The notes under the pieces are model-generated. The model saw only the letters and a program-made list of their open reading frames with translations, ran no database searches and was not told the DNA's origin. Positions 18,712-64,000 of a DNA stretch of 64,000 nucleotides are shown one piece after another. Source of the DNA: Daphnia carinata (lineage: Eukaryota); contig NC_081331.1 of NCBI RefSeq assembly GCF_022539665.2, positions 5,766,001 through 5,830,000 of the forward strand, given 5' to 3'. Numbering within the stretch: the first letter of the stretch is position 1; every line of letters begins with the position of its first letter. A program made the translations under genes and the position numbers.

Positions 18712-19287
18712 CTATTTCTGGGTTTCCGTACCACACCCATTTTCAGCCCAAATACGATCCCACAATTGTTCACTTCCTTCGCTGCATGGACTTATTACTA
18801 ACAATTCTTTTAGTGCAGCACTAACAGAATTTAACTTTAACACACTGTCAGGTGGTAGACTGAATAACTAAACAATAAATAATTGTTTGTTAAAATTCTA
18901 TACTTATTTTGAATTCTTATTTGAAAAGTTTAGGTACCTGACTGTGTTCGCCTAATGCCAATTCATCCTCATGTTCAGTTAGGGATGAGTTTGGAAAAAC
19001 CTCCTTCACTGTTTGGAAACTGTTCCGTTCCAATTTGTTTTTTTCCCCTACTGAGCTTGTAGATTCAAAATTTGAGCTACAAAACACAAATGAATAAAAG
19101 CAAATAAATAGAATCACTACGTATTAGGCCTTACCATCCTTAGCTTTGCTGTTATCTAATATTTTGTGTTGTTCCAATAATTGCGCCTGCAGCTTCATAA
19201 TTTGATCTAATAAACAATAATTAATAATTGAAAACCAATATAATAATGTTTATACTTACCATCCTTTTGTTGTATTATCTTATCCAT
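18712..19287 (-). pseudogene. Inverted copy of the coiled-coil gene in the right arm, frameshifted (approximate coordinates)
   Basis: Same exon/intron layout, but CAG-CTA-GGG of the left arm reads CAG-TAG-GGG here (1-nt loss near 19050), creating a stop. Confidence 0.5.
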
Positions 19288-19542
19288 TTTTCAATTGTTC
19301 CTCCAGCCACGCGTTATTCTCCGTCCACGCTACTGAACTTACTGCGAATGGCATCCAATGGACTGAAATTGCCTACGCCAGTAATAACGAGTCTGAGCGG
19401 TAGATGGCTACGTGTCGGAAAAAAAGAAAAAAGTGTTTTTTTTTGTTTTTTTTTGACGAAATTTTTTTTTTTTTTTTTGTGTAAAACGGATTGCCATAGA
19501 TTGCCATAGAAATCAAGTTTATTTTTCAATAGGTCTTATAGT

Positions 19543-43474: not shown

Positions 43475-45448
43475 ATGCCTATCAATACTTCATTTCCAAT
43501 TCCCAAACCTCTCCCAGGATTGAAGAAAGCTTTTCCAAGTGTATCAGCGCGTGTCAACTCTTTCAGAGACCGCAAAGCTGTTTCCAAGTTACCAGCCACT
43601 TCTGCGGTTCCTCAAAGTTCCGGCAACGGTTCGAAATCTACCAACGTGAGCCAATCCCCGAGATCGCGTACTTATCACGATTCCTCTGGTGTTTCAGCTT
43701 GCCTCAAACCTGCCAACCCAGAAAAAGTGGAAGTTAAATCGAAAGTACCAGCACAAAAGCCGGTTGTTTCCAAAGCACCGGTGCCCCGGAAGAACACCAT
43801 CCGGGCAGATAGCGCAGTTGTGGTGGAATCCCCTCCAGTAGACTTTGTGCGCCAACCTTTCCGGGCCACACCTGCTCCTTCGAGCACCTACAAACCACCA
43901 AAGGATGGCTCGGCAGTTAAACAAGAACCTCAACGACCGGCCAAGAAAGACGCGGCCAAACCACCGCAGCCAGAAAAGGTGAAATCCGTACCTTTCCGTG
44001 CTCGACCTGTTCCTGCTAGCACATACAAGCCGTCTTTCCAACCGACGATGCGCAAAATCAACAAGGTCGTTATCGAAACCGAACAAGCCCCCGTGGAAAT
44101 TGTCAACGAGCCCACAATCGCCAATGAAGTGGAAATTGCTGAACCTACACACGAACCTGTTAGCTGCGAAACATCGAAGGTTTGTGAAACAGTGGCTTGT
44201 GAACCGGTGGTTTCTGAACCCGTGGTTTGTGAAGCGGTGGTTACTGAACCCGTGGTTTGTGAATCGGTGCCCGTGGTTTGCGATAAATTGGCTAAAATCC
44301 ATGCCCGAAAAGTCCGGAGGAGAAAATGTCGCAAGGCAAAGAAAGCGGCCGGGAGAGCCGAAAGGGCCGCTCAAGAGCAACAAGCAGCTCCCACAGAAGT
44401 ATCTGAGAAGACGGATTTGGTTACGGTAGCAGATACGAGTGAAAAGGAACCCGTGGTTTGTGAATCGGTGGTTTGTGAACCGGAGGTGTGTGAGCCGGTG
44501 GTTTGTGAACCGGAGGTGTGTGAGTCGGTGGTTTGTGAACCGGAGGTGTGTGAATCGGTGGTTTGTGAGCCCGTGGTTTGTGAGCCGGTGGTTTGTGAAC
44601 GCGTGCTTTGTGAACAGGTAGTTTGTGAACCGGTGGACGCACCGGCTGAAGCAAGCAGCTTGAACGCAGACGCTCGTCCATTTTTACCCCATCATCCCCA
44701 AGGGCCGGACGTGCCACCTTTCCTGCCAAAAGTGTTTATCAAGGATTGCATAAGAACTTATGTCCCTCAACAATGGAACCATTACACCCAACCACCTGAT
44801 TACGGCAACCTCTACGATGCAAATGGCACACCCTATTGGGACAGATCCATGGCCAGCTATCATTGCGTTCGCATGACAGAAGATAATTTCTACCAACATT
44901 TCCGTAAACATGGTGCTGCTGATGGACCCTTGCGAAGAGAAGCTGATGTCCAAGGCAATGGCGATCAAACGGCTAACGTCCATGTCCGCAAAGCCCGGTA
45001 TAGAAAACCCAAGAAGGCCGAATGGAATGCGTCGTACCAACGTAGGTTGGCCAGGAGAGCGGCCGAGAGAGCCGCTCAAGAACAACAAGCAGCTCCCACA
45101 GAAGTACCCGAGAAGACGGATTTGGCTACAGTGAGTGAAAAGGCAGATGAAAACTTAGATGCTTCCGTCGTTGTGGACCCGATTTCAGCTTCCATCGAAG
45201 AGGTTGGGTTACCTGAATCGACGTGCACTGCTGCTGTAGAAGAATGTTTACCTGTTTACACCCAATATGAATCCGTCGTTTATGTTTCTTCTGTTCAGCG
45301 TGAGAGGTCGGTCGTTAGAACTGCTAAATCAGCTGCATATGTCCGTGTTCGTGGAAGTAGAAAGAAGAGATCACGGGGTGAGTCCTACCGACGTAGATTG
45401 GCCCGGCGAGCACAAGAGAGAGCAGAAAGAGCTGCAATGGAAGCATAG
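43475..45448 (+). CDS. Intronless 657 aa protein with two PFRA(R/T)PxPxSTYKP motifs, EPVVC pentapeptide arrays and repeated basic helices (copy 1)
   Basis: Long ORF conserved in the duplicate. The F(R/K)ARPxP motif resembles TPX2/FAM161-type microtubule-binding motifs. Confidence 0.75.
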   Translation: MPINTSFPIPKPLPGLKKAFPSVSARVNSFRDRKAVSKLPATSAVPQSSGNGSKSTNVSQSPRSRTYHDSSGVSACLKPANPEKVEVKSKVPAQKPVVSKAPVPRKNTIRADSAVVVESPPVDFVRQPFRATPAPSSTYKPPKDGSAVKQEPQRPAKKDAAKPPQPEKVKSVPFRARPVPASTYKPSFQPTMRKINKVVIETEQAPVEIVNEPTIANEVEIAEPTHEPVSCETSKVCETVACEPVVSEPVVCEAVVTEPVVCESVPVVCDKLAKIHARKVRRRKCRKAKKAAGRAERAAQEQQAAPTEVSEKTDLVTVADTSEKEPVVCESVVCEPEVCEPVVCEPEVCESVVCEPEVCESVVCEPVVCEPVVCERVLCEQVVCEPVDAPAEASSLNADARPFLPHHPQGPDVPPFLPKVFIKDCIRTYVPQQWNHYTQPPDYGNLYDANGTPYWDRSMASYHCVRMTEDNFYQHFRKHGAADGPLRREADVQGNGDQTANVHVRKARYRKPKKAEWNASYQRRLARRAAERAAQEQQAAPTEVPEKTDLATVSEKADENLDASVVVDPISASIEEVGLPESTCTAAVEECLPVYTQYESVVYVSSVQRERSVVRTAKSAAYVRVRGSRKKRSRGESYRRRLARRAQERAERAAMEA

Positions 45449-45785
45449 AAGGACGTGGCTTAGGCTGCAGTGCCCCAAGTGCCTCAGTGAGTCATTTACT
45501 TTCTATTTTCAACACAATGTGTATCAAAATTCTCAAGTTTAACCTTTTTTTCGGCTTTCCTTTAATTCTAAACTTGTAAAGATGTCCTTCCCCAGTAGCA
45601 AACCAAAGGGACTAGGAGGTGAACCCGTAAACGGAGTTGTTCGTTGTCGTATGTGGGGGCTAACCTATTAATGTTTTCTTTCTGTTTCAATTGTCTTCTT
45701 CACGGCACAAGTTTGCGGTGCAAGTGACGGGATGGTGAGCAATATTGCCATCTCTCACTAGCACGCACTCGCCGGAAGAAGGCCA

Positions 45786-45890
45786 TCACGAGAGTTGAAT
45801 GTCTCGTGATGTTGGCAGAAGTTAACAAGTTGTCCCTCACGAGAGTTGATTGTCTCGTGATGGTGGCAGAGTTAATAGGTTGTCCCTCAC
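45786..45890. repeat. Two ~51-bp tandem units, each containing a CACGAGA...TCTCGTG hairpin (second copy at ~54050-54154)
   Basis: tcacgagagttgaatgtctcgtgatg...gttgtccc is repeated directly. Confidence 0.7.
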
Positions 45891-46471
45891 CTCTGCGAGA
45901 ATGCGCAATTACCTTTAGGGGGGAGTTTTTCCTTAAATGAGCCAATCAGTTCTGGAAGTGCGCTGCTATGGAGACATCTGAGCAAGTATTCTTCTCCTTT
46001 TTTCCTCTTTTTTCCTTATTCTTTTGCTGTTGTTTTTGTTCGGCTTGTCATGTTGTTAATTTACTGTTCTGTCAGTTGATTACGGCTTGTCATATTGTTA
46101 ATTTACTGTTCTGCCAGTTGATTACAAACAAAATTTTAAATCAATTTATTACCTTTGTTTTCTTTATTAATAATTGGATTTCAATCCAGTTCGTGCGTTG
46201 TTCAGGGTTATCCGCTAAGTATTTCCAAATTATTGCACTTTATTCGGTCAGAAGCTCCACAGTTATCAAGCAAAGGCAGTATGGGCGAATACATTGGATG
46301 TCTTGTTCCCAGTTTTCTTCCCCAAATATTCATTAGACAAAGCTAGATAGCACAAAGCAAGAGATATTACAGATGGCAATTTTATAATGGCAGAACAATT
46401 TAAACAGGCAAGATTAGTTCACAACGATTTGGATCTCCTGTTGTTTTACTACTGGGCATTACATGCCAAAT

Positions 46472-48961
46472 TTAAACTGAACCTCCATCTTTAAGAAATG
46501 CTGGCATTTGGATGAAATGATATTCATCCTTTCTATCAATCTTGCTAGTTTCATGGGCAATGTCTTCCGTTTTACATTTGCGAAATCGAATGTATTTTTT
46601 CAGGCTTACAATCGATTCCAGCGTTTGCCGCTGCTTTGGTTCTACGTTTTCTAACTTTTCATTTACTTTATCCTGGGCACATTTAACTACGCTTTCGAGA
46701 TCAGCATACGAGGGTTTTTCATTCAAATATGCTTCCCACAAAGCCTCACAGAGAGCTTGAATAAAAGAACTACCCAAATACTCTCTCACTTTACCGTTCT
46801 TGTATAATCGGTTGGCTTCGAAGCCGGCCAGAGTTGCTTTGATTGTTATGAAATCCATCAGTGGAGGATACTTCGTAAGTTTTTGTGGTGTCTCGCTTTC
46901 ACGGTTAGTATTAACTTCCATTCTTGGCGATTGGGCTATGGGAGGTGATTGCCCTTTACCTAGATAGAAGGAAAATCAAATCAAATTATTGCACGAAGGG
47001 TATTGATGAACTGAGAAATGTGAGTAGGTGAGTTACAAACCGAGTGCAAATAAAACGGTATTCCACATGTGGGAAATCAGCTTCGTAACGACGTGTGGCG
47101 AATGGCGAGAAGGATAAACTATATCCGTTTTGCTCTGGCTCAGTTCCCCCTGACAAGCCTGGACGATGAATATTTTGGGTTTGCCGTACAGACTGGGGCA
47201 CTTAGCTAAAGAGAACTCGTACTTAAGTTCATTAATATTAACGTAAAGACCATCGTAACACATGATTGTGTTCTCGGTTCCATGAGACAAAAGACATACA
47301 ACAAGGCAACCATAATCCTTCCAATTTTTTTTGGCCAGACTGTTGATATCGGATTTCAAATCAAACGATGCACTATTTTCAATAATTTTAATTTCGAAAC
47401 CCAATTCTTTAAATGCATCCTCTAACTTATCTCGGTCTTTGTCGCTCCCACCGCGGTTCTAGATTAAAACAACATAAAAGTAAATCAATAAAAATGATGG
47501 AGGATCAAATGGCGTTTGATAGTTGTTAGAATTTCCATCGTGGTACCTGTTTTTTATCTTGAAAAACCTGTTGGTTAAAGATAACACAAAGGCCAGGTTT
47601 CTTATATTTCTTATCACCTATCTTATAATCTTCGGAAGGGTTGTAATAAGGACTGCGAAGGACTTCTTCTAATTCTGGACGTTCACCCTCGTTGAACTTC
47701 AACATCGACTTGATAAGCTTTACTACGTTCTTGTTCTGATCGCTGAGAACGAACTCATGGTTTTTTTGATAGACGAAATACGTAGTATCTCGTATGTTGT
47801 CCCGACGCACTCCGTGATTGCCAAATGGATGTTTGGGTTCGTTGTTGCCCGTCCGTGCGGTTAGGACATAGTGATAGAAACAACCTAGAATGAAGACATC
47901 CAATTTTGTGCTGAGATCTTTTGTCTTATCCCCGCTTTCCGGTGCTTCCCATCCTTCTGATGCAGCAGATCCCGATTGCTTAATATCGTTCTCAGGGTCA
48001 TGCCTTCTGGTCAGACGAAAATCAGTTATTTTAACCACATATCGGCATGCACTGTTAACGGACGAATCCAATTTCTTAATAAGGAAGTTATTTGGCTTGA
48101 TGTTTCGGTGGATAAAGTTGTTTTCATGCAAATAATGGAGTCCTCTCGTTGCCTGTCGCAGGATTTCTTTCTCTGGCAAATCCAAGAGAATTTCTTGATC
48201 CAAACAGAATTTGTTGTTGAGCTCTCGATCCAAAAGATCTGCCACAGAACACAGGCACAGTTCTGTTGCAAGGTACCTGTGTAAATAATCAAAAAAGGTT
48301 TCAAAGTAAAGAATAAAAGGATAAATGCTGGTTGCTGATATACATATAGAACGAGTCCATTTCGTGAGCGAAAAAGCGGATAAAATTTTCGTGGGCTCCT
48401 AATTCCTTTAATATTCGACACTCCCGTTCAATTTCTTTCTTCTGATCTTTGCTGTGGTCTAACAATGTCTTTACGATGGCCACTGGAACATCGCAGTTGT
48501 AGTTGTAGAACCCTTTAACAATTTGTCTTTTGTTCCTTAATGAAGTTTTTTTTTTTTTATATTTTCTTCTCCTTCTGGATTGCCGGACAAATATAGAAAA
48601 ACGGGCTCTCCATTTTTGCTTTCAGTGTAAGCGTAGTAAAGATTACCATTATCCTCATGTTCTGCGACAAATAGAGAGAATTTCAAACAAGTGTTTTTAG
48701 TGATTAAACGTTTTTGGTTTCCCCCATGTCAGACGCAATCACAGGAAAATGAGACATACCGATATTTGGAATTTTCTCCTGAAGTGGAATGGGTAGCAAC
48801 GTTTCGTCGTCCGATTCAACCAGTGTTCCATCTCCTTGGCTTGGACTGGACTCCTGGAAATTGCGATCTAATCCTAATTGGCTGGTATCCGTAGCAGTAC
48901 TATTGGAGTTGTCAGCCTCCGTAGATAACACCCTGTGTCTTCTGAAGGTGCTCCGTTCCAT
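46472..48961 (-). CDS. IRE1-like pseudokinase-caspase fusion, copy 1 (exons ~48961-48760, 48661-48344, 48276-47547, 47458-47041, 46959-46472). Start uncertain; apparent frameshift in an A13 run in exon 2
   Basis: Kinase: HENFIRFF, GLHYLHENNFIHRNIKPNN, ITDFRL, SEGWEAPE, DVFILGC, HPFG. Caspase: PGLCVIFNQ, RGGSDKD, LSHG, KPKIFIVQACQG, GSSFIQALC. Confidence 0.85.
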
Positions 48962-50602
48962 TTTTTTGTTCCAGATGTACACACTGTTTGATGTCGTAAC
49001 ACAGTGTTTGATAAGTAGCCTGATTCTGTCCAAGTCGTTCTTCAACCACTCGTTGTGTCCGCTCACTGAACGTCTATAATATCAGATATATCCACGCATT
49101 TACATAAAACTTATGTGCAGAAAGTCGTTCGTTTTACTATCAGTGTAGTCTATAACACAATACGTTTTATCAGTAGTTAACAGATTAACCTTTTCACCTG
49201 TAGATATGAAATTATAGCTGGCGTTATCTGTCCTATCGGTTAACAACAACATTTGCTAGGTAAAAAAGCCATTTATTTATTCTTTTTTTCTTTTTTCTGC
49301 TGAAATCAAACAGTTCCTCCTTTTTTTTTTTGCTCCCCCCCCCCACCTTTGGTTTTCACTGGAAATTGAACGGATGACAGAAATTTATTATTTTTCAGAA
49401 CCCATCCCAATCGCCATAACGAAGAAGAAAATGTTCAGCTGCTTCGATATGTTAAGAAGAAGAAGAAAAAAAAGGATTTTTGAATTCTAGTTGTGAATTG
49501 AAAAGGTGCCAACAGACAGAAAGAAGAAGAAAATTCCATGGAATCGAATCCGGAATTGGACACGGGCAGCGGAGCCCAAAATTTCAATGGAGCGGAAAAC
49601 GTTTCGACACAGTTGTGCCGACACAACGAGGCGTTCAGGAGGAAAAACTTCTGGATTTTAATTAACAGCCTCCTTCCCCCTTTACCCCCCGTCTACATGC
49701 AAGCAATTTAGACATGGCTATAGTGTAGTAGTACACGAAAAGTTAGTAGCAGCGAAAAGTTTCGAAACTTTTGTGGATGCGAAAAACCGGATGGGGTCCC
49801 TGTCACATGTCACACAGCCAGCCCTTTAAGTTCTACATCGACCGAAATATAACAAGTCTATGAAAAAGGAGTCCATTTGAACAGATACACACGAACTAAA
49901 GGCTTCCGGCATCCGTTCCCCCCAAAAAAGGAAGGACGGAAAGAACACACGTGCTAACGGTGCCCAAACACAAAGAGTTTTTCCACATCCAAAACACGAA
50001 AAGGTAAAGACATGTCAAGTGATTCTCACATTCAATAACGTTTGAATGATGATGGCATTGTTGAATAAAAAAATTCCTAACCGAGAAACGTGATCGGTAA
50101 ATTAAAAGGAGCCCAAGACATTTCCGTCAGCCACAAAAGAAAAATGCCGACTGCAAATAAACAGAGGGAAACGGAAAGACTTATTTTTCGGTAGACACTC
50201 AAATTGGTATATTAAATAACTAGCTAGTAGAAAGAAAAAACTGTTAAAGCAAAAGGAAAAAAAAATGGGGGATTGAAAGTCTAATGATATACACAGTTGC
50301 AACAAGTCCTCCTCTTTGAATTGGGCATTCATTGTCTTCTTTTTTTTTGCTAAGCACCTGGATTCGTTGGCTTTGTTTTCTACATTTTTTGTGTTTCACG
50401 ATGCGCACGGCTTCACGTGATTATAGGGGAACTGCTGATGCGTTTGAACGATTGACACGACTAAAGACTTGCAAAGTATCAGTTCAATCTGACAAACCCC
50501 ACACACAGTAAAAAAAAAACGAGACTGTTCTGATCAGTCACACGATCGAGATTTTCAAGGCTGGCTAGAGACTATTTGTAAACACTTATTGTTTTAATTT
50601 AC

Positions 50603-50789
50603 CTGCTGCAATGGGAAGTGTGGATTGTGGCACGTCTCGGTCGGGCAATCCTCTGGCACGATAAGCTGAACGAACCGATGAACAGGTCACGTTGTTACTG
50701 GGTGATGTTGGCTGGGAGGCGTTAACGATGGTGAACCAAATCAGCAACAGGAGCCATCGGTGAGGAAAGAAAACTAAAGGGGAAGCCAT
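50603..50789 (-). other. Duplicated glypican first coding exon (signal peptide) with its promoter and intact donor
   Basis: [24 protein letters not shown]...PIAAG|gtaaat, a paralogue of 42241-42055. Confidence 0.85.
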
Positions 50790-52006
50790 TTTCACTTTTG
50801 GTGGTTGATGAAAACTTGTTGCTCTTTTTTCGACTTTTGGCACGATGCGCCTCCAACGGCGTGGCGAGAAGAATGGCCGCTGTTTTTGTTTTTTTTATTT
50901 CAAATATTAAAATAGAAAAACCACGAGGAAATGTGTGTTTTTAACTTTTATTTCTTTTTTTTCTAATTTTCTTCCACCTTCTTTTTTCGACGGCCTTGGA
51001 ATGTTTTCGAGATGGAAATTTACACAAATCACTCCCGGCTGCTGGACGGATGAATCACCATCGTTATTTTGTTGTTTTCTGAACTTTTCGATGGCTCTCT
51101 CTCAAAACGACCCAGAATAGAACACACGAAGGGTTAAAAATTGATAACGGAATTTGCATACTGCCGACCAAAACGGAGACGATTGAAACCAAATTTCTTG
51201 TTAAAACTTGACTTGCAGCAACGAGGAGGAGAAAACAGAATACGAACAGGCGAGGAGAGACAGGACGCACATGCGAACCGATCGTTACTTGACTCTCGAC
51301 TGATTCGACTCGGAACTTTAGCAGCCAAACCAAGAAGTCTCTCCTCCCCTTACCTTCGTCGCTATCCAAACGACAACAGCACCAAAAAGAATACGCGCGT
51401 CAATGGCGCCAGGCTCTAATGCCTCTAAGGTTTGGAGGAGTGAGCAAAATACGCAAAGAAATTGATTCGTTTACGACATCTAGCGATCGCTTTGAAAGTA
51501 CGGCGCAAAAAACCTTGTCTTTTTTTTTCTTTGTTTTTCTAACAACGAGCTTGCAGCTTACCCTTCTTATGAAAATCTTGCATTTCTGTTTTTATTATAG
51601 TGAGCTTAAACTATTTCGTTTCATGATGCCAATTAAATTGAATTTCATAACAAGTATAATCAGTTTCACTATAAGTCGTCAGCCTGATCAACAAGTGGTC
51701 GGCCGAAACACATTGGCGGCTCGATATTCAGCGTTGAGGTAATCATTTCAGTTATATTTTCTAATTTCACATGGAATATAAGGAAAACTAGTATTTGAAA
51801 TGCATCTGAAAAAAAAATACTGAACGCGAAAACATAAAAGTTAATGCCACAATTTTGAAATTGAATTTTTAAAATCAAAATTTCGAGTTGAAACGACAAC
51901 GAAAACGGAGTTCGTCATGAGATAGGGGCAGAGCAAGCTAAGCCGAATTTTATCGATATTTTCCTGACTTTAAAGCTCGTCACCAGCGACTTGCAAGTTA
52001 TCGAAA

Positions 52007-53731
52007 ATGCCTATCAATACTTCATTTCCAATTCCCAAACCTCTCCCAGGATTGAAGAAAGCTTTTCCAAGTGTATCACCGCGTGTCAACTCTTTCAGAG
52101 ACCGCAAAGCTGTTTCCAAGTTACTATCCACTTCTGCGGTTCCTGAAAGTTCCGGCAACGGTTCTAAATCTACCAACGTAAGCCAATCCCCGAGATCGCG
52201 TACTCATCACGATTCCTCTGGTGTTTCAGCTTGCCTCAAACCTGCCAACCCAGAAAAAGTGGAAGTTAAATCGAAAGTACCAACACAAAAGCCGGTTGTT
52301 TCCAAAGCACCGGTGACACGGAAGAACACCATCCGGGCAGATAGCGCAGTTGTGGTGAAATCCCCTCCAGAAGACTGTGTGCGCCAACCTTTCCGGGCCA
52401 AACCTGCTCCTTCAAGCACCTACAAACCACCAAAGGATGGCTCGGCAGTTAAACAAGGACTTCAACGACCGGCCAAAAAAGACGCGGCCAAATCACCGCA
52501 GCCAGAACAGGTGAAACCCGTACCTTTCCGTGCTCGACCTGTTCCTGCTAGCACATACAAGCCGTCTTTCCAACCAACGGTACGCAAAATCAACAAGGTC
52601 GTTATCAAAACGGAACAAGACCCCGTGGAAATTGTCAACGAGCCCACAATCGCAAATGAAGTGGAAATTGCTGAGCCGACCCACGAACCTGTTTGCTGCG
52701 AAGCATCGAAGGTTTGTGAAACAGGGGCTTGTGAACCGGTGGTTTCTGAACCGGTGGTTTGTGAACCGATGGTTTCTGAACCCGTGGTTTGTGAACCGGT
52801 AGTTTGTGAACCGGGGGTTTCTGAATCGGTGCCCGTGGTTTGCGATAAATTGGCTAACGTCCATGCCCGAAAAGTGCGGAGGAGAAAACCTAACAAGGCT
52901 GAATGGAATGCGTCGTACCAACGTAGATTGGCCAAGAGGGTGGCCGAGAGAGCCGACAGGGCCGCTCAAGAGCAACAAGCAGCTCTCACAGAAGTATCCG
53001 AGAAGAAGGACTTGGTTACGGGAGAAGATACGAGTGAAAAGGAACCCGTGGTTTGTGAGCCGGTGCTTTGTGAGCCAGTGGTTTGTGAACCGGTGGCCGC
53101 ATTGGCTGAAGCAAGCACCTTGAAAGTAAACGCGCGTCCACTTTTACCTCGACATCCGCAAGGGCCGGGCGTGCCACCTTTTCTGCCAAAGGCGTTTATC
53201 AAGGACTGCCTAAGACCTTATGTCCCTCAGCATTGGGACCAGTACACCCAACCACCTGATTACGGTAACCTTTGCGATGCAAATGGCACGTACTTTCGGG
53301 ACATATTCATGGCCAACTATCACTGCGTTCGCATGGCTGAAAATAATTTCTACCAATACTTCCGTAAACATGATGTTGGTGATGGAGCTGTGCGAAGACA
53401 AGCTGACGTCCAAGGCAATGACGACGTCGTGGACCCGATTTCAGCTTCCATCGAAGAGGTTGGGTTACCTGAATCGACGTGCACTGCTGTTGTAGAAGAA
53501 CGTTTACCTGTTGACACCCAATATGAATCCGACGTTTATGTTTCTTCTGTTCAACGTGAGAGGTCGGCTGATAGGACTGCTAAATCAGCTACAAATGTCC
53601 CTGATCATGGACAACAAGAAGAGACCACAAGGAAGAGACCACGAAATGCGGCCTACCGACGTAGATTGGCCAGGCGAGCTCAAGAGAGAGCAGAAAGAGC
53701 TGCAATGGAAGCAGAGAAGCAGGTGGCTTAG
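52007..53731 (+). CDS. Intronless 574 aa EPVVC-repeat protein (copy 2)
   Basis: Paralogue of 43475-45448 with different repeat numbers; the indels keep the reading frame open. Confidence 0.75.
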   Translation: MPINTSFPIPKPLPGLKKAFPSVSPRVNSFRDRKAVSKLLSTSAVPESSGNGSKSTNVSQSPRSRTHHDSSGVSACLKPANPEKVEVKSKVPTQKPVVSKAPVTRKNTIRADSAVVVKSPPEDCVRQPFRAKPAPSSTYKPPKDGSAVKQGLQRPAKKDAAKSPQPEQVKPVPFRARPVPASTYKPSFQPTVRKINKVVIKTEQDPVEIVNEPTIANEVEIAEPTHEPVCCEASKVCETGACEPVVSEPVVCEPMVSEPVVCEPVVCEPGVSESVPVVCDKLANVHARKVRRRKPNKAEWNASYQRRLAKRVAERADRAAQEQQAALTEVSEKKDLVTGEDTSEKEPVVCEPVLCEPVVCEPVAALAEASTLKVNARPLLPRHPQGPGVPPFLPKAFIKDCLRPYVPQHWDQYTQPPDYGNLCDANGTYFRDIFMANYHCVRMAENNFYQYFRKHDVGDGAVRRQADVQGNDDVVDPISASIEEVGLPESTCTAVVEERLPVDTQYESDVYVSSVQRERSADRTAKSATNVPDHGQQEETTRKRPRNAAYRRRLARRAQERAERAAMEAEKQVA

Positions 53732-54735
53732 GCTGCAGTGCCCCAAGTGCCTCAGAGTCATTAACTTTCCATTTTCAACACAATGTGTATCAAAATTCTC
53801 AAGTTTAACCTTTTCTTCGGCTTTTCTTTAATTCTAAATTTGTAAAGATGTCCTTCCCCATTAGCAACCAAAGGAACTGGGAGGTGAACCCGTAAACGGA
53901 GTTGTTGTTGTCGTATGTGGGGGCTAACCTATTAATGTTTTCTTTCTGTTTCAATTGTCTTCTTCACGGCACAAGCTTGCGGTGCAAGTGACGGGATGGT
54001 GAGCAATATTGCCATCTCTCACTAGCACGCACTCGCCCGAAGAAGACCATCACGAGAGTTGATTGTCTCGTGATGTTGGCAGAAGTTAACAAGTTGTCCC
54101 TCACGAGAGTTGATTGTCTCGTGATGGTGGCAGAGTTAATAGGTTGTCCCTCACCTCTGCAACAATGCGCAATTACCTTTACGGGGGAATTTTTCCTTAA
54201 ATGAGCCAATCAGTTCTGGAAGTGCGCTGCTATGGAGACATCTGAGCAAGTATTCTTCTCCTTTTTTCCTCTTTTTTCCTTATTCTTTTGCTGTTGTTTC
54301 TGTTCGGCTTGTCATGTTGTTAATTTACTGTTCTGTCAGTTGATTACGGCTTGTCATATTGTTAATTTACTGTTCTGCCAGTTGATTACAAACAAAATTT
54401 TAAATCAATTTATTACCTTTGTTTTCTTTATTAATAATTGGATTTCAATCCAGTTCGTGCGTTGTTCAGGGTTATCCGCTAAGTATTTCCAAATTATTGC
54501 ACTTTATTCGGTCAGAAGCTCCACAGTTATCAAGCAAAGGCAGTATGGGCGAATACATTGGATGTCTTGTTCCCAGTTTTCTTCCCCAAATATTCATTAG
54601 ACAAAGCTAGATAGCACAAAGCAAGAGATATTACAGATGGCAATTTTATAATGGCAGAACAATTTAAACAGGCAAGATTAGTTCACAACGATTTGGATCT
54701 CCTGTTGTTTTACTACTGGGCATTACATGCCAAAT

Positions 54736-57120
54736 TTAAACTGAACCTCCATCTTTAAGAAATGCTGGCATTTGGATGAAATGATATTCATCCTTTCTAT
54801 CAATCTTGCTAGTTTCATGGGCAATGTCTTCCGTTTTACATTTGCGAAATCGAATGTATTTTTTCAGGCTTACAATCGATTCCAGCGTTTGCCGCTGCTT
54901 TGGTTCTACGTTTTCTAACTTTTCATTTACTTTATCCTGGGCACATTTAACTACGCTTTCGAGATCAGCATACGAGGGTTTTTCATTCAAATATGCTTCC
55001 CACAAAGCCTCACAGAGAGCTTGAATAAAAGAACTACCCAAATACTCTCTCACTTTACCGTTCTTGTATAATCGGTTGGCTTCGAAGCCGGCCAGAGTTG
55101 CTTTGATTGTTATGAAATCCATCAGTGGAGGATACTTCGTAAGTTTTTGTGGTGTCTCGCTTTCACGGTTAGTATTAACTTCCATTCTTGGCGATTGGGC
55201 TATGGAAGGTGATTGCCATTTACCTAGATAGAAGGAAAATCAAATCAAATTATTTGGCACGAAGGGTATTGATGAACTACGAAATGTGAGTAGATGAGTT
55301 ACAAACCGAGAGCAAATAAAACGGTATCACAAATGTGGGAAAGCAGCTTCGTAGCGGCGTGTGACGAATTGCGAGAAGGATAAACTATATCCGTTTCGCT
55401 CTGACTCAGTTCCCCCTGACAAGCCTGAACGATGAATATTTTTGGTTTGCCGTACAGATTGGGGCACTTAGCCAAAGAGAACTCGTACTTAAGTTCATTA
55501 ATATTAACGTAAAGACCATCGTAACACATGATCTCGTTCTCGATTCCATGAGATAAAAAACATACAACAAGGCAACCATAATCCTTCCAATCTCTTTTGG
55601 CCAGATCCTTGATATCGGATTTCAAATCAAACGATGCACTATTTTCAATAATTTCAATTTTGAAACCCAATTTTTTAAACGTCTTCTCTAACTTATCACG
55701 GTCCTTGTCGCTCCCACCGCGGTTCTAGATTAAAACAAAATAAAAGTAAATCAATAAAAATGATGGAGGATCAATTGGCGTTGATAGTTATTAGAACTTC
55801 CATTGTGATACCTGTGTTTTATCATGAAAAACCTGCTGGTTAAAGATAACACAAAGGCCAGGTTTCTTATATTTCTTATCACCTATCTTATAATCTTCGG
55901 AAGGGTTGTAATAAGGACTGCGAAGGACTTCTTCTAATTCTGGACGTTCACCCTCGTTGAACTTCAACATCGACTTGATAAGCTTTACTACGTTCTTGTT
56001 CTGATCGCTGAGAACTAACTCATGGTTTTTTTGATAGACGAAATACGTAGTATCTCGTATGTTGTCCCGACGCACTCCGTGATTGCCAAATGGATGTTTG
56101 GGTTCGTTGTTGCCCGTCCGTGCGGTTAGGACATAGTGATAGAAACAACCTAGAATGAAGACATCCAATTTTGTGCTGAGATCTTTTGTCTTATCCCCGC
56201 TTTCCGGTGCTTCCCATCCTTCTGATGCAGCAGATCCCGATAGCTTAATATCGTTCTCAGGGTCATGCCTTCTGGTCAGACGAAAATCAGTTATTTTAAC
56301 CACATATCGGCATGCACTGTTCACGGACGAATCCAATTTCTTAATAAGGAAGTTATTTGGCTTGATGTTTCGGTGGACAAAGTTGTTTTCATGCAAATAC
56401 TGGAGTCCTCTCGTTGCCTGTCGCAGGATTTCTTTCTCTGGTAAATCCGAGAGAATTTCTTTATTCATCAGGAATTTATTTTTGAGCTTTCGATCCAAAA
56501 GTTCTGCCACAGAACACAGACACAGTTCTAGTGCAAGGTACCTGTGTAAATAATCAAGAAGGCTTTCAAAGTAAAGAATAAAAGAACAAACGCAGGTTGC
56601 TGATTCATACACAAAGTCCGGGCTCATTTCGTGAGTAGAATAGCGGATAAAATTTTCGTGCGCTTTTAGTTCTTTCAATATTCGAACCTCTCGTCCAATT
56701 TCTTTCTTCTGCTCGTTGGTGGACACTGGCAATTTTACGATGGCTACTTGAACATCGCAGTTGTAGTTGTAGAACCCTTTCATAATTACTCTCCTTTTCT
56801 CTCCCAAACATTGAGGAACTTGGCTTCCATCTTTTAGAATGTATCCTCTGAAAAGTTCACCATTATCTAAAGAGAAAATTTCAAACAAGTTTTTTAGTGA
56901 TTAAACGTCTTTTGGTTTCCTCCACGTCAAAAAAAATCACAGAAAAGTGAGACGAACCGACAATTGGAGTTTCCTCCTTAAGTAAGGGTATGTCTTCGTC
57001 TTTCAATTCAACCGGTGTTTCATCTCGTGGGGTTGGGCTGGGCTCTTGGATATTGCGCTCTAGCGTTACTCGGTTGGCCGTCGCAGCATTCTCAGAGCTG
57101 TCACCTTGCGCAGCAAACAT
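54736..57120 (-). CDS. IRE1-like pseudokinase-caspase fusion, copy 2 (exons ~57120-56958, 56866-56611, 56541-55812, 55724-55307, 55223-54736). Start uncertain
   Basis: Open, in-frame spliced model with HRNIKPNN, DFRL, GWEAPE, SHG and QACQG. Confidence 0.88.
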
Positions 57121-58487
57121 TCTATGTTTTTCGAACTTGGTCCGTTCACTTTTTTTTTCAGATGAACTAAAGCACTATTTGGTGTACGTGGCACAATGTT
57201 TGATGAGTAGCTTTATTCTGTCCTCGTCTTAACTGAAAGTTTTCTAATATCAAAGAAATCTATATATATTTGCTTGAACGACGTATCTGCTATAATTCGT
57301 GCGTTTATCAGTGTGTATTAGTTGTAAACAGATAACTTAAACCCCGTTGCATATGCATTTTACTGCTGGACCGTTATCGTTCGGTTAACAATAATATTAC
57401 TAGATAAAAAAAACCACACAATGGGATCTCAAGTTAGCGTATGCGTGAAATCTACTAATGCATGGAATTAAAAGCTTATGCAAACTGGACAAATAACTTT
57501 TATTCTAGCTAGGCCGTACAGTGTTGACCCCTTTTACTGTCATATAAGTACCTTGCGCTCACCAACTGCGCCACGAGAAATGATCTACTAGTTGCTTTCA
57601 CGAGTTAGATTGACGAGATTAGATATGAAAAAGTATGCCTTGCCTTGTCGCATAGGTCAGACGGGCTGAACCCAATCGCAATAAGAAATCCATAGTTAGA
57701 ACCCAGGCTTACAAGAACGAATTCAATTGTTCATTTCAGGTTTTTTTTTTGCAAATATCTATCCTGATTGTTCTGCCTTTCGCTACCTTTGCCTGTTTCA
57801 TATTTTCCTAGTTAACAGCTGCCTAATGTATGAACTTTCTTTGCCCTTACCTAAACGAAGTTTACAACGTTGGTTTATAGGAAATGAACGGGGTGCAATA
57901 TATATCAGACATTCCTTTTTCCCCTCTTTTTCCTTATTCATTTGCTGTTGTTCTTGTTCGGCTTGTCATGTTGTTAATTCACTGTTCTGTCAGTTGATTA
58001 CACACAAAATTTTAAATCAATTTATTATCTATTTTTTCTTTATTAATAATTGGATTTCAATCCGGTCCCTGCGTTACTCAGCGTTAGCTGCAAAGTATCC
58101 CACCCTGCAAATTATTACACTTATTCGGTTTAGAAACTCCAATTATTAGGTAAAGGCCGTTTTATAGTAGAGGGGATCGCCGAGACGAGGTTTGAAAACC
58201 CGCCTCTTATCCACAAATAAAATAATATTGACAATTTACAAATAAAATCGAAACAAATACTAAGCGTTTACCGATAGTGATACTAGGGAAACAAGGTGAT
58301 TTCATACTGGTTGTATTTGTTGTTTCATAAATGCTGATTATGGTTTTGGCTTCAAACATTCTAAGTTCTGAGTTTTTCTAAGAAAACGATTTACGAACTT
58401 TGGACTATTTCGTATATGTAGAGTTTATTAAACACAATTTGCATCTCTCATCGGTTATTGTTGGATACTAAATGCGCACATATTTTT

Positions 58488-60810
58488 TTAGAAGCTCGAT
58501 GTAACGTCAGTGCCCTCGGGGTCACGTTTCCGGAATCGAATATTTTTACTTAGGCATGCTTCCCATACCACAGTTTGCCGTGAGTCCCTTCCTGAACGTT
58601 CGTTGACTTTGTCCTGAACACATTTAAGTAATTTTTCAAGATGCTTGTTCTTATGTTTGGTTCCCGTTTCCTCCTTCAAACATTCATCAGACAAAGTCTC
58701 ACAAAGAGCTTGAATGAAACAGGTACCGCTTACGGGATTCCGGTAGGCAACGAAACCAGGTAGAGTGGATTTGATTGTAAAGAAATCCATAAGCGGCGGA
58801 TTTCTTTGAGCGCTGTCATGAATTTTCTTTTCACGTAACTCTCTTTCGTAATTGCAGATCTCGTTTGTCGGTTGAACTACGGATGGTGATGAATGCAATT
58901 TACCTGGATAGCAGGAATTTAAAAAAAATTTATTACTCTGCATGAAAGGTATCGGTGAACTGAAGAAGACGAGAAAATCAGTTACAAACCGGTGAAATGC
59001 AAGTAAACGACACCAGGAACGGCCCACAGCTTTGAAATGAAGGTCGTTTGATGGGCAGAAGAAGCTTTTATTCCCTCTTCCTGTTGTTCAAGTTTTCCCT
59101 GGCAAGCTTGGACTATGAAGATTTTGGGTTTTCCATACAGACTAGGACACTTGTTCGAAGAGAACTCGTATTTTAATTCGTTTATGTTAACGAATTTGCC
59201 ATCGTAACATAAGATTGCATTCTCAATTCCATGAGACAAAAGGCACACAACTAAGCAACCATAATTCTTGAAATCTCTTTTGTTGGCCAGTTCGTTGATT
59301 TCAGATTTCAACTTATCCGAATTTAGATTTTCGTGAACTATAAAATCGAAACCAAGCTTTTTAAATATATTCTTTAACGCTTCTTTATCCTTGTCGCTCC
59401 CTTCACGGTTCTGGTAGAAAATGAAATAAATTGATAAACAAAATTTTGGAGAATTAGGGATAACAACCAGTGTTTGACAAGTAGGAACTTCCGTAGTACC
59501 TGTTCCGGATCTTCAAATTCTTGCTGGTTGAAGATAACACAAAGGCCGGGTTTAACATCTAGATCAGCATATATCCTGTAATCTTCGGAAGGTTTGAAAT
59601 AAATATCGTCAAGAACATTTTCTAATGTTGGACGTGCGTCCTCCTTGAACTTCAACATCCAATTTATAAGGTCTTCCGCCTTTTTCATGTCCTTGATATT
59701 TTCACTGGTAGCGAACAGAAAGCCATTTTTATATAATAGATAACATGGATCTTGAATGTTTATCCCACGAGTACGTTCATCGCCGAATGGATGTCTGGGT
59801 TCTTTCTTGCTCGTCCATGCGGTTAGGACATAGTAATAAAAACAACCGAGAATGAAGACATCCAATTTTTTGCTGAGGTTTTTTGTCGTATCTCTGCTTT
59901 CCGGTGCTTCCCATCCTTCTGATGCAGCTGGTCCCGATAACGTCGAATCATTTTTAGGATCATATTTTCTCGACAGGCGAAAATCTGTTATTTTTACCAC
60001 AAATCGGCAAGTGCTTTCACCTGTTTTATTAATTTCTTTAATAAGAAAATTATTTGGCTTGATGTTGCGGTGGACAAAGTTGTTTTTGTGCAAGTAATTG
60101 AGTCCATTCGTTGCCTGTCGCAGGATTTCTTTCTCTGGTATTTTGAGAATATCTTCTTTCATGGGGATTCTCTTACCGAGGGCTGGATCTAAAAGATCTG
60201 CCACAGAACACTCACACATTTCTATTGCAAGGTACCTGTGTAAATAATCAAAAAGATTTTGAAATCAAAGCAAAGAATAAAAGAATAACCGAAGGTTGCT
60301 GATTCATACACGAAGTTCGAGTCCATTTCGTAAGTGAAATAGCGGATAAAATTTTCGTGGGCCTCTAGTTCCTTCAATAATCGAATCTCCCGTTCAATTT
60401 CTTTCTTCTCCCCTGGGCTGTAGGCCGGCAATTTTACGATGGCTACTAGAAGATTGTAGTTGTAGAACCCTTTCATAATTTCTCTCGTTTTGTTTCCCAA
60501 ATATTGGGTATCGTGGCTTCCATCTTTTAGAATACAACCTGCGTAAAGATTACCGCTACCTAAAGAGAAAATTTCAAACAAGTTTTGAGTGATTATACGT
60601 CTTTTGGTTCCTCCACGTCAAACAAAATCACAGGAAAGTGAGACGTACCGACAATTGGAGTTTCCATCTTAAGTAAGGTCGTGTCTTCTTCTTCCAATCC
60701 CACCGGTGTTTCATCTCGTTGGACTGGACTGGGCTCCTGGATATTGTGCCCTAGCGTTACTAACTTGGCCGTAGCAGCACTCTCAGAGCTGTCAGCTTGC
60801 GTAGAAATCA
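58488..60810 (-). CDS. IRE1-like pseudokinase-caspase fusion, copy 3 (exons ~60810-60648, 60559-60310, 60235-59500, 59410-58990, 58903-58488). Start uncertain
   Basis: Same five-exon structure with HRNIKPNN, DFRL, GWEAPE, LSHG, QACQG and GFVAYRNPVSGTCFIQALC. Confidence 0.88.
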
Positions 60811-61399
60811 TTCTGTGTTTTTCGAACGTGGTCCGTTCATTTGTTTTTTCCAGATTTACTAAAGCACTATTTGGTGTACGTGACACAATGTTTGATAAGT
60901 AACCTGATTCTGTCTTTGTCCTAACTGAACGTTTTCTAAGGTTTTTAAACTACGTTCTAAGGTAGCGTTATCAGAAATATCTACGCACTTGCTTAGCTTT
61001 ACTATCAGTGTATTGTACAATACGTTCTATCAGTTGTTAATAGATTAACGTTATTACCCGTGGATATGAAATTATAGCTGACCGTTGTCTGTACTATCTG
61101 TTAACGGCAACATTTACTAAGCAAAAAAAGCCACAAAATGCGATCTCAAGCTATCGTATGTGTGGAATCTACCAATGCATCGGTAAAAAAGCCTGTACAA
61201 ATTGTACAAGTTTATTTCGTGCTAGCTAGCCTATACAGTGTTCAGCCATTTTACTGTGATTTTAGTATATGAGATTATATACGAAAAAGTACACCTTGTC
61301 TTGTCGCCTAGGTCAGGCTGTCTGAACCCAATCGAAATAAGAAAATCAAGGTTAGAACCTAGGCTTGCAAGAACGAATTCAATTGCTCATTGCTTGCTG

Positions 61400-61910
61400 T
61401 GTAGAAAGCATTCTGTTCGTTGTTTTTAAGTTGGTTCACTCACTTTTTTTCAGACGTACTAAAGCACTATTCGGTGTACGTGGCACAGTGTTGATACTGT
61501 CCTGTTGTAGCTCTGGTTGCAGAAACGAAACTGCACGTTTATTGCTCTAGCGGCCCCCCCCCCCCCCCTCCGAGCTGCCGGAAATCTGTGGCGTCACTTG
61601 TGGACAACCTTGACATGTTTTAGTCGTTCCTCAGCGACTCGCTGTGTCCAATCACTGAACGTCTTCTAATATCAGATATATCTACGCACAAGCTTAAAAC
61701 TTATCTGCAGTAAGTCGCTATTCATTTTACTCTTAGTGTGTTGCAAAATACCTTATATATATTGTTAATAAAGAACTTTATCACCCGTAATATGAATTTT
61801 GCTGCTGGCCACTGCCTGTTCTATCGGTTAACAGCAATACGTACTAGACAAAAAAAGCCACATAATGGGGTCTCAGGCTATATCGTATGTGTGGAATCTA
61901 CTATTGCATG
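61400..61910 (-). pseudogene. Relic 5'/promoter fragments of a kinase-caspase gene
   Basis: 61404-61500 resembles 57110-57220, and 61650-61910 resembles the upstream regions at 49065-49270, 57240-57470 and 60960-61180. Confidence 0.55.
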
Positions 61911-62094
61911 GAACAAATTCTTTTGCTGTGGTTTTTGTTCGCTTGTCATATTGTTAATTCACTGTTCGGCTTATCAACTTCGTTTCCTTTGTTGATAATA
62001 GGATTTCAATCCAATCCCTTCGTTATTCAGGGTTACCCGCAAAAATTTCCAAATTATTACACTTATTCGGCCAGAAGCTCCATAACTATCAGGC

Positions 62095-62378
62095 AAAGGC
62101 GGTACGGGTGAAGACATATGACGTCTTCTTCCCCGCTTTCTCCTTCAAATATTCATTCGACAAAGCGTTATAGGGAGCTTGAATGAATCAGCTACCTTCC
62201 CCCGGCATCCCGGTAGGCAATGAAACCAGGTAAAGTTGATTTGATTGTAAACAAATCCATAAACGGCAAACTTCTTTAAACACTGTACCGACTTTCATTT
62301 CTCATAACTTTTTTAAATAATAGTTGAATTTTATGTCCTCGTTTGCCAATTGAACTGTGGACGGTGATGATTCCAATG
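62095..62378 (-). pseudogene. Orphan caspase small-subunit exon with nonsense codon
   Basis: Translates PFMDLFTIKSTLPGFIAYRDAGEGS*FIQAPYNALSNEYLKE, closest to copy 3. TGA sits at the position of the usual GSWFIQ tryptophan. Confidence 0.7.
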
Positions 62379-62765
62379 TGTCGGTTTCTCCCGTTTTCCG
62401 TGTCCTTTCCACGTCAACTAATCATATATGCATAATATTATAAACGATTCATTTGTTTTCCTGGTATAATTAGATGTGTTAAACTAACAGTGGCTTTTAG
62501 GATCATGGCTTTGAGCGGATTTGGAGGGAATACAAATTCAGTTCAATTTTATTAGTCTTTCTGAGTGGTCTTTGGCTGAAGATATCCAATGTATTGGCTA
62601 GAGATGTTACAGATGACAATTTATAAATCACAGAACATTTTCAACAGACAGGATTTATCAACAGCAACTTGGATCTCCTATTGTTTTACTACTGGGAATC
62701 ACGTACCAAATTCAAACTGAACCTCCAACTATAACAAACGCTAGGGTTTTACGATGAAATGGTAA

Positions 62766-64000
62766 TCATCCTTTCTTTGAATCTGGCTTAGGTGTAACGT
62801 CTTTGCCTTTGACTGCACAGTTGCGAAATGTAATGTTTTTGCTCAGGCATGTTTCCCATTGCATGGTTTGCCAGAAGCACTGACACACACCTTGTTGCTG
62901 GCCCTCACCTTGGTTCTTGCACTCAAATTGGTGCATGACATTCGCCATCTCTGCCCTTGAAAATGCATTGATTTTATCCTGAACACTCATTTTAAGTAAG
63001 TATTCCAGATGATGGGGATTATCTTTCTTCATTTCTTCGGACAAAGTATCACAGAGAGCGTTGATGAAAAAAGTACCTAGATCCTTGTTCCTGAAGGCTT
63101 CGAAGCCGGCCATAGCTGCTTTGATTGTTATGAAATCCATTAGTGGAGGATACTTCATAGCGTCTTGCCTTATTTTGCTTTCATAGTTGGGATTAATTTC
63201 CAATTTTGGCCATTTGACTTCGGTAGGTGATTGCCATTTACCTGGATAGCAGGAATACAAAGTCAAATTATTTTGCACGAAGGGTATTGATGAACTGAGA
63301 ATGTAAGTAGATGAGTTACAAACCGAGAGCAAAGGAAATGGTATCCCACATGTGGGGAAAAATGTCGCCGTTTTTACTCAATGGCACCTGACAAGCCTGG
63401 ACAATGAAAATTTTGGGTTTGCCGTACAGACTGGGGCAATTATATAAAGAGAACTCGTTCTTGAGTTCAGTATAATTAACGTATCGACCGTCGTAACACT
63501 GAATTGCGTTCTCGACTCCATGAGACAAAAGGCACACAATAAAGCATCCATAATCCTTCCAATCTCTTTTGGCCAGATTTTTGATTTTGGATATCAAATC
63601 AAACGATTCAAGATTTTCATAAACTTCAGTGTCGATACCCGATCCGTGAAACATAAGCTTTAACTTTTCTCGATCCTTGTCGCTACCTGCGCGGTTCTAG
63701 ATTAAAATAAAATAAAAGTAAATCAGTAAAAATGATGGAGTATCAACTGGCATTAAATAGGTAATAGAATTTCCATTGTGATACCTGTTCTTTATTTTTA
63801 AAAAATTGCTGGTTAAAGATAACGCAATGGCCAGGTTTCATCTCATTTCTCTTATTATATATATCATAATCTTTGACAGGGCTGAAATAAAGGCTGCAAA
63901 GGACTGCTTGTAATGTTGGACGTTCGCTTTCGTTGAACTTCAACATCAATTCCATAAGCCTTACCACGTCCTCGTTCCCATCACTGAGAACGAAGTCAAG
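62766..64000 (-). CDS. IRE1-like pseudokinase-caspase fusion, copy 4, 5' part outside the window (exons >64000-63785, 63696-63324, 63241-62766)
   Basis: Kinase C-lobe end LMELMLKFNESERPTL, then PGHCVIFNQ, RAGSDKD, LSHG, QACQV and GFEAFRNKDLGTFFINALC. Confidence 0.85.

Follow-up and report, generated by a model that had tools for sequence, protein, structure and literature searches.

A Daphnia carinata gene array joining an IRE1-like putative pseudokinase to a caspase domain

The window analysed is a 64,000-nucleotide stretch of the Daphnia carinata genome. Its part from 46472 to 64000 holds four kinase-caspase genes, all on the minus strand; a segmental duplication and a relic copy are listed with them:

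40716..48523, no strand assigned: first unit of a tandem segmental duplication of ~8 kb (partner unit 49271-56787)
46472..48961, minus strand: copy 1 (exons 48961-48760, 48661-48344, 48276-47547, 47458-47041, 46959-46472)
47547..48276, minus strand: junction exon of copy 1, from the kinase hinge through the C-lobe (HRN, DFR) into caspase strand 1
48546..48558, minus strand: A13 homopolymer with a frameshift in exon 2 of copy 1, either a real lesion or an assembly error
54736..57120, minus strand: copy 2 (exons 57120-56958, 56866-56611, 56541-55812, 55724-55307, 55223-54736)
58488..60811, minus strand: copy 3 (exons 60811-60649, 60559-60310, 60235-59500, 59410-58990, 58903-58488)
59500..60235, minus strand: junction exon of copy 3 (spliced model, Pfam)
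62132..62377, minus strand: relic of a further decayed copy, a caspase small-subunit exon (blastn, tblastn)
62766..64000, minus strand: 3' part of copy 4 (exons 64000-63785, cut by the window end, 63696-63324, 63241-62766)

The initial annotation had proposed minus-strand fusion genes at this locus, and the spliced models bear this out. Their introns are GT..AG and 67-98 nt long, with phases 1,2,0,1 in copy 3 and, once the start is placed at 57120, also in copy 2. In copies 1-3 the junction-exon ORF has a Pfam Pkinase match, and in all four copies the next two exon ORFs match Peptidase_C14. A single exon encodes both the kinase C-lobe and, without a break, the first caspase strand in 4/4 copies, as had also been proposed, and the same intra-exon junction occurs in the metagenomic loci L001-L004. 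A gene-model artefact is ruled out because the junction lies within one exon in the four copies and in these loci.

The reading of all copies as genes held for copies 2 and 3, which are open, and failed for copy 1, which is frameshifted in this assembly. Copy 3 (661 aa) is identical to the D. carinata RefSeq protein XP_057370249.1. Copy 2 is open over 684 aa; RefSeq covers just the last 520 aa (XP_057370248.2, P0015) and is identical there. The part of copy 4 inside the window is the C-terminus of P0008 (713 aa). In copy 1, the frameshift at the A13 run leads to a stop at codon 109, and copy 1 is therefore not a full-length gene in this assembly; its RefSeq model (P0022, 550 aa) starts downstream of the lesion. 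Copy 1 is also a chimera, with a copy 4-like 5' part (83/100 identities to P0008 over the first 100 aa, vs 29/71 to copy 2) and a 3' part nearly identical to copy 2 (60/60 in the last windows). The source of most of copy 1 is the ~8 kb tandem segmental duplication, whose units match at 90.8% over 3872 nt and 94.7% over 3374 nt. The relic matches the p10 exon of copy 3 at 74% in blastn (tblastn E 4e-6).

Pfam gave kinase and caspase domains only, with a Peptidase_C14 match at E 1e-47. No KEN domain (PF06479, Ribonuc_2-5A) was found in P0002, P0008, P0197 or P0342, with IRE1 controls positive, and the fusion proteins showed no CARD or DED prodomain, with DED and Dredd controls detected, and no ankyrin repeats. 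The N-terminus is short, disordered and hydrophilic; there is no separate sensor domain, and hydropathy gave no signal peptide or TM segment (maximum over 19 residues, 1.52). Pfam and hydropathy thus agree with the initial annotation, which had expected Pkinase plus Peptidase_C14 and no KEN, CARD, DED or TM segment. In copy 3 the protein is laid out as follows:

residues ~1-45: disordered N-terminus
residues ~78-351: putative pseudokinase
residues ~354-488: caspase p20, with R385, H443, Q484 and C486
~70 aa: linker between p20 and p10
residues ~561-649: caspase p10, with R578

The caspase begins ~6 residues after the kinase end, like KEN in IRE1 proteins, where KEN starts 6-7 residues past the end of Pkinase (e.g. 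496 then 502). The Pkinase match of copy 3 stops at 351, and its alignment to the caspase fold starts at 354.

Sequence, fold and tree all mark the kinase as IRE1-like, as the initial annotation had claimed from its motifs. The best PDB sequence matches of the fusion were IRE1 (E 3e-29), and the top 10 Foldseek matches of the better copy 3 model were all IRE1. In a kinase tree of 35 rows, the fusion kinases formed one clade (support 100/100). The clade fell within the IRE1/RNase L group (100/98) and there joined the IRE1 side (97/83). This tree is without mammalian RNase L, and a grouping of the fusion with RNase L-like kinases was not rejected (AU test, p 0.074). The stem branch of the fusion kinases is long, at 0.91 changes per column. 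The caspase tree did not place the donor lineage, with P0452 excluded and the P0453 row cut at wrong coordinates.

Conservation was scored in an alignment of 85 rows with column denominators that vary; the counts are partly shaped by the selection, because the rows were picked by hand from ranked matches. The HRD Asp is Asn (HRN) in 78/80 rows and the DFG Gly is Arg (DFR) in 71/80. The beta3 Lys column reads V14 L5 R3 E2 I2 K1 of 27, and the GxGxxG Gly-loop is absent. HRN, DFR and VAIVK stand as first described, with the precision that in VAIVK the catalytic Lys position is not shifted but occupied by the second Val. Likewise the kinase appears dead in copies 1-3 as proposed, but not in these alone, since that of copy 4 is degenerate too in P0008. 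With the beta3 Lys, the HRD Asp and the Gly-loop lost, the residues of the fusion kinase support its assignment as a pseudokinase. That the kinase is atypical but active, and controls the caspase by autophosphorylation, is highly improbable: such a kinase could draw on the DFG Asp (79/80 rows), the catalytic-loop Lys and Asn and the alphaC Glu, all of which are kept, but would have to work with Asn as catalytic base in 78/80 rows, the beta3 Lys in just 1/27 and no GxGxxG loop.

The structural residues are largely kept. This holds for the activation segment and for the R-spine (L116 27/28, Y128 27/33, H193 78/80, F223 76/80). In gap-free register with the IRE1 motif, in the numbering of Joshi et al. 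as it appears in the part of that paper used here (PMC4536996), the IRE1 alphaC-beta4 dimer residues have equivalents in the fusion: E612=E112, R617=K117, D620=E120 and R627=R127. Their character is conserved, with K/R at 117 in 22/26, E/D at 120 in 22/26 and R/K at 127 in 26/33. The partner of D620 in the human IRE1 dimer is R594 according to the same part of that source (PMC4536996), and the copies displayed in the alignment do not retain its equivalent. A homodimer prediction for the copy 3 kinase (76-358) scored 0.00, in a run without an alignment and with controls that were not folded, which speaks neither for nor against a dimer.

In the caspase part, the copy 3 model superimposes on caspase-3/-8/-7 with Z 31 and an rmsd of ~2 A. 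The claim of an intact catalytic site stood for SHG and QACQ and for the S1 Arg/Gln/Arg, the last with equivalents in all four copies (R385, Q484 and R578 in copy 3); the full QACQG is confined to copies 1-3, with QACQV in copy 4. We take the Arg/Gln/Arg motif to be the S1 residues for a P1 Asp. Across the alignment, H443 is conserved in 34/38, C486 in 44/48, R385 in 32/36 and R578 in 28/30. Some members have altered or dead sites (QACQV in P0006 and P0008, QSCQS in P0004, none in P0049).

The architecture is not confined to this locus. The survey that the initial annotation had called for found relatives in six named species of Daphnia, spanning both major groups, with at least nine diverging paralogues in D. 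carinata, and an ESM Atlas kinase-caspase cluster of 92 members. The architecture is already in databases, under misleading automatic names (caspase-8, MAPK4, IRE1-like, LRK10L-like). A D. pulex locus is modelled as separate kinase-only and caspase-only isoforms. In comparisons with copy 3, kinase dN/dS was 0.62-0.65 (CI 0.44-0.93) vs 0.25-0.29 for p20. Such rates, the D. pulex models, and the frameshifted copy 1 with its neighbouring relic could be read as signs of an ordinary caspase that carries an inert kinase in decay, or of an array made up mostly of pseudogenes. This is very unlikely. The kinase core is the most conserved region (0.90 in the catalytic-loop region and 0.91 in alphaF, vs 0.74 in p20), the dead-site substitutions HRN and DFR are themselves conserved across both Daphnia groups, the kinase dN/dS CI excludes 1 in both copy 3 comparisons, and the junction is present in 73/85 aligned rows.

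The AlphaFold model of copy 3, built from the 85-row alignment, had a mean pLDDT of 81 and a pTM of 0.84. This pTM and a pLDDT >90 over the kinase-caspase junction indicate a fixed inter-domain orientation and suggest, on the basis of one model, that the kinase packs rigidly on the caspase. A shallower alignment gave pLDDT 57 and pTM 0.50, and the ESM Atlas's own model has pTM 0.49. Rigid packing would also fit a pseudokinase that is an autoinhibitory clamp and tripwire instead of a dimeriser. The caspase would then stay inactive until the pseudokinase is modified or bound by an upstream kinase or a pathogen effector, in the manner of MLKL or RKS1, or until the long variable linker is cleaved by a foreign protease. 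In favour of a clamp, conservation is lowest in the linker (53-76 aa, column identity 0.46), kinase divergence between paralogues is fast, the activation segment and R-spine are kept, and PMC8141879 offers precedent. However, a clamp leaves the retained alphaC-beta4 dimer charges unexplained, and no pair has a linker dN/dS significantly >1 (every CI includes 1). Together with its possible triggers we consider it a minority possibility, and not mutually exclusive with a dimerisation switch.

The retained interface residues and IRE1-type ancestry could also serve an ER-stress death adaptor, whose pseudokinase docks back-to-back on oligomerised canonical IRE1 and thereby clusters and activates the caspase. 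An upstream platform would be needed because the fusion is without its own sensor domain. One conserved partner fits poorly with the nine or more diverging D. carinata paralogues and with the long kinase stem branch, and we regard this adaptor as unlikely.

In IRE1 and RNase L, the kinase module gates an RNase, with back-to-back kinase or pseudokinase dimers controlling KEN. The fusion resembles IRE1 in kinase sequence and fold, R-spine, alphaC-beta4 dimer residues and an effector directly after the C-lobe, but lacks luminal domain, signal peptide and TM segment, and pairs a degenerate kinase with a caspase in place of KEN. With RNase L it shares the kinase superfamily, a predicted cytosolic location and a pseudokinase directly before the effector; unlike RNase L, it has neither ankyrin sensor nor KEN, and its kinase lies on the IRE1 side in the best tree, where the RNase L-like grouping was not rejected. 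Animal initiator caspases are switched on via CARD/DED adaptors. Caspase-8/Dredd and caspase-9/Dronc match the fusion in fold, His-Cys dyad, QACQG, S1 Arg/Gln/Arg and a large N-terminal regulatory region; in the fusion, however, this prodomain is a putative pseudokinase instead of CARD, DED or Dredd_N, and no linker Asp near the Cys is conserved across the family.

We favour, with moderate confidence, a single chain in which an IRE1-type pseudokinase, working by dimerisation or allostery, serves as the on-switch of the caspase, in line with the sensor or dimerisation switch that the initial annotation had suggested. A duplicated IRE1-type kinase would have shed its luminal/TM part and acquired a caspase domain in the place of KEN, and the kinase, no longer an enzyme, would have been retained as a conformational switch packed on the caspase. 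A cytosolic trigger (nucleotide or ligand binding at the pseudo-active site, a modified activation loop, or a partner) would favour a dimer-competent state; dimerisation would activate the caspase as in initiator caspases, linker cleavage probably not being needed, and the output may be Asp-specific proteolysis that acts in cell death or immune signalling. Pseudokinase switches gating effectors are described for MLKL and RKS1-ZAR1 in the part of PMC8141879 considered here. For a death effector the likeness is one of analogy only: MLKL and plant RKS1/ZAR1 belong to unrelated kinase lineages, and their effectors are pore-formers, not proteases. Counting against a switch are the lost R594, the high kinase dN/dS, the pTM of 0.50 and 0.49 in the other models, the altered or dead caspase sites of some members and the missing sensor domain.

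More tentatively, the fusion is possibly a water-flea innate-immune sensor-executioner, in which the IRE1-derived pseudokinase senses a pathogen signal or effector and fires the caspase directly, without a death-fold adaptor or apoptosome-type platform, with duplication and recombination diversifying the array in the course of an arms race between host and parasite. On this reading and on the favoured one, a role in defence would fit the tandem expansion, the chimerism and the rapid change of the proteins. Daphnia is a main model of host-parasite coevolution, and the fusion provides a concrete candidate family there, with an IRE1/RNase L-type kinase module sitting directly on a protease. A working switch would mean a new way of activating a caspase, and it would serve as a natural experiment on the portability of kinase-dimer allostery. 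We found no description of a Daphnia kinase-caspase family in the open literature searched. The available part of a published Daphnia caspase survey reports D. pulex-specific clades, which could be the same proteins, and leaves out the prodomains because they vary too much for alignment (PMC2685406).

Kinase and caspase domains also share a chain in the alewife Alosa pseudoharengus, where XP_076138190.1, a predicted gene model from one species, combines pyrin, an RNase L-type kinase and a caspase. Unlike the Daphnia kinase, its kinase keeps HRD, DFG and the beta3 Lys, and it has a pyrin domain and a spacer of ~65 residues. A common origin was rejected (single clade, AU p 5e-6), and the alewife fusion is, by this sequence comparison, independent of the Daphnia family. 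If the sensor-executioner reading held, the alewife fusion would mean that animals have coupled an IRE1/RNase L switch to a caspase on at least two occasions. Actinobacterial proteins, in a cluster of 91 members, likewise carry both domains in one chain.

The DNA of the window is animal and rich in introns. Six-frame translation combined with Pfam revealed four minus-strand blocks holding parts of kinases and caspases, which agrees with the initial annotation of at least four fusion genes, except that copy 1 is frameshifted at an A13 homopolymer (48546-48558). The exons could be chained across introns of 67-98 nt bounded by GT..AG. This gave copy 3 a protein of 661 aa that matches the Daphnia carinata RefSeq entry XP_057370249.1 exactly, and copy 2 an open model of 684 aa. 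The 3' part of copy 4, which is cut by the window end, was identical to the end of the 713-aa protein record P0008. Copy 1 sits within a tandem duplication of ~8 kb and is a chimera: its residues 1-100 are identical to P0008 at 83/100 positions, and the 3' part hardly differs from copy 2. In all four copies (4/4), a single exon runs from the kinase C-lobe into the first caspase strand. Because of this, faulty gene modelling does not explain the fusion, in line with the initial argument. Further features of the window were:

946-5670, plus strand: low-complexity ORF of 1574 aa, no Pfam match
8104-12517, plus strand: integrin beta gene, an ordinary neighbour
13168-14112, minus strand: single-exon enoyl-CoA hydratase-family gene, an ordinary neighbour
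14460-16720 and 17214-19498: inverted repeat of 2.3 kb, 90.5% identity
28658-29392, minus strand: 3' end of a glypican gene (Pfam Glypican)
43442-45448 and 51974-53731, plus strand: duplicated long single ORFs of 668 and 585 aa
about 50586-50894, with a partner near 42000-42300, minus strand: signal-peptide-like first exon, copied inside the tandem duplication
about 62132-62377, minus strand: relic small-subunit exon

The inverted repeat may be a transposon or have arisen by inverted duplication, and the signal-peptide-like exon probably belongs to the glypican gene. The 668- and 585-aa ORFs carry two PFRA-P-P motifs, which we take to be TPX2-like, together with 12 and 5 copies of an EPVVC-type repeat; their only Pfam match is a weak one to Keratin_B2_2.

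IRE1 supplied the best PDB sequence matches of the fusion kinase, the top ten Foldseek matches of a good copy 3 model, and the best structure rows in the ESM Atlas. In a kinase tree of 35 rows, the fusion kinases formed one clade (100/100) inside the IRE1/RNase L group (100/98), bearing out the family assignment first proposed. This clade was placed on the IRE1 side (97/83) and outside the well-supported eight-row core IRE1 clade; a grouping with the RNase L-like set was not rejected (p 0.074). The beta3 Lys is kept in 1/27 rows, the HRD Asp is replaced by Asn in 78/80 and the DFG Gly by Arg in 71/80, and the Gly-loop is absent. Judged by these losses, the domain is therefore a pseudokinase, as its HRN and DFR motifs had been read before. 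Set beside them, an active kinase is barely credible. The R-spine positions are kept in the family alignment. Using residue numbers and roles from a human IRE1 study (PMC4536996), the equivalents of E612, R617, D620, R627 and Y628 are kept in a gap-free register, and that of R594 is lost. A fusion protein serving as an adaptor that docks on IRE1 is unlikely. Comparing copy 3 with copy 1 or 2 gave dN/dS values of 0.62-0.65 (CI 0.44-0.93) in the kinase and 0.25-0.26 in the p20 caspase subunit, kinase comparisons with copy 4 being short and uninformative. Despite its dN/dS, the kinase core is the best-conserved part of the protein, and the variable parts are the post-alphaF region, the N-terminus and the linker. 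Given this conservation, a pseudokinase carried along as an inert passenger is less likely still than such an adaptor.

The fusion shares its kinase type with IRE1 and RNase L but differs from them by a caspase in place of the KEN RNase domain. The caspase (Pfam E 1e-47) superposes on caspase-3, -8 and -7 from residue 354 of the copy 3 model (Z about 31), three residues past the end of the Pkinase match; in IRE1 controls, KEN begins 6-7 residues past the kinase. His443, Cys486, Arg385, Gln484 and Arg578 (copy 3) are present and conserved in the family alignment, so that the annotated His-Cys dyad and Arg/Gln/Arg S1 residues are intact. P0049, a divergent member, has a caspase lacking both His and Cys and is a possible decoy. 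Pfam returned Pkinase and Peptidase_C14, and no CARD, DED, KEN, ankyrin, signal peptide or TM segment was found in the fusion proteins, much as initially described; unlike CARD/DED initiator caspases, the fusion thus has a caspase domain without either prodomain. The linker spans 53-76 residues. Copies 1 and 2 have Asp at the usual processing position, which we presume from caspase-3/-8, many paralogues have Gly there, and Asp was not found in the first 25 linker residues of copy 3. Because of this replacement and absence, the conserved switch, as far as sequence indicates, is probably something other than linker cleavage. The caspase tree included seven fusion caspases from named Daphnia, and these formed one clade (100/99) with the protein P0062 outside it, and no donor caspase lineage was singled out.

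With the copy 3 junction exon as query among longer proteins, 19 of 21 matches had both Pkinase and Peptidase_C14; 18 came from named Daphnia (carinata, magna, sinensis, galeata) and 1 was the window's own. A profile search found both domains in at least 10 (8 named Daphnia, 2 environmental) among 120 listed of 168 matches, and D. carinata-type models number at least 9 (7 on one contig, 2 on another). Members were also found in D. pulex and D. pulicaria. Since they occur in both groups, the family predates the split between magna/carinata and pulex, put at 145 My or more in PMC11500718. The junction is common to many divergent fragments, being spanned by 73 of the 85 rows that we chose from ranked matches; 61 of these 73 have HRN/DFR and none has HRD. 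Four metagenomic loci showed breaks at matching positions, and one of them, L002, is likewise tandem. RefSeq isoforms of D. magna members differ by small in-frame insertions, and P0049 and P0062 are continuous across intron sites, which offers indirect hints of expression. The fusion family is real. At one D. pulex locus (P0054, P0204, P0200), the gene models put kinase and caspase in separate isoforms, and the reading frame changes where the two would join; P0197 of D. pulicaria, 97% identical to the proteins of that locus, is fused. P0001 of D. sinensis joins two tandem units in one 1194-aa model.

Novelty had been left unconfirmed. The architecture is already in databases, as a 92-member arthropod cluster with automatic names in the Atlas, and no description of the family was found in the literature searched, which excluded subscription journals and some supplements. 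An immune survey of D. pulex (PMC2685406) gives eight caspases and leaves out their prodomains; the word "kinase" is absent from its text. The Daphnia family falls outside IRE1, RNase L and the initiator caspases with CARD or DED, and its members are caspases whose regulatory domain is of a new kind.

Copy 3 modelled on the 85-row alignment reached pLDDT 81 and pTM 0.84 with a confident junction (shallower models: pTM about 0.5). As this pTM was obtained despite two domains and 98 low-confidence residues, kinase and caspase are predicted to be packed in a fixed orientation. Initiator caspases are activated by dimerisation. According to PMC8141879 and PMC4536996, back-to-back kinase dimers assemble the effector in IRE1 and RNase L, and the pseudokinases MLKL and RKS1 serve as switches controlling death effectors. 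Together, these precedents favour a pseudokinase switch, in which dimerisation or an allosteric change would gate the caspase; we prefer it over the four rivals and give it about an even chance. For the same packed domains, a pseudokinase acting as an autoinhibitory tripwire on the caspase is possible, at distinctly lower probability. Beyond the preferred switch, we infer a trigger, caspase activity and an immune role for the fusion.

Kinase and caspase matches occurred together in 17 of 147 representative proteins scanned, and HRD in only 1/17. This was P0082 of Alosa pseudoharengus (XP_076138190.1), a predicted model in which pyrin and a caspase share one chain with an RNase L-type kinase that is intact. 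It was the only one with a caspase among 120 listed of 1142 matches, and it may be a read-through. Its relatives join pyrin (Clupea, Sardina) or CARD (Coilia, Salminus, Colossoma) to the same kinase. A common origin of the Alosa and Daphnia fusions was rejected (p 5e-6), and by this comparison the Alosa fusion is independent. The Atlas also holds a bacterial kinase-caspase cluster of 91 members. Two further proteins, P0057 and P0073, combine LRR, two kinase domains and KEN, and are other sensor swaps within the IRE1/RNase L superfamily.
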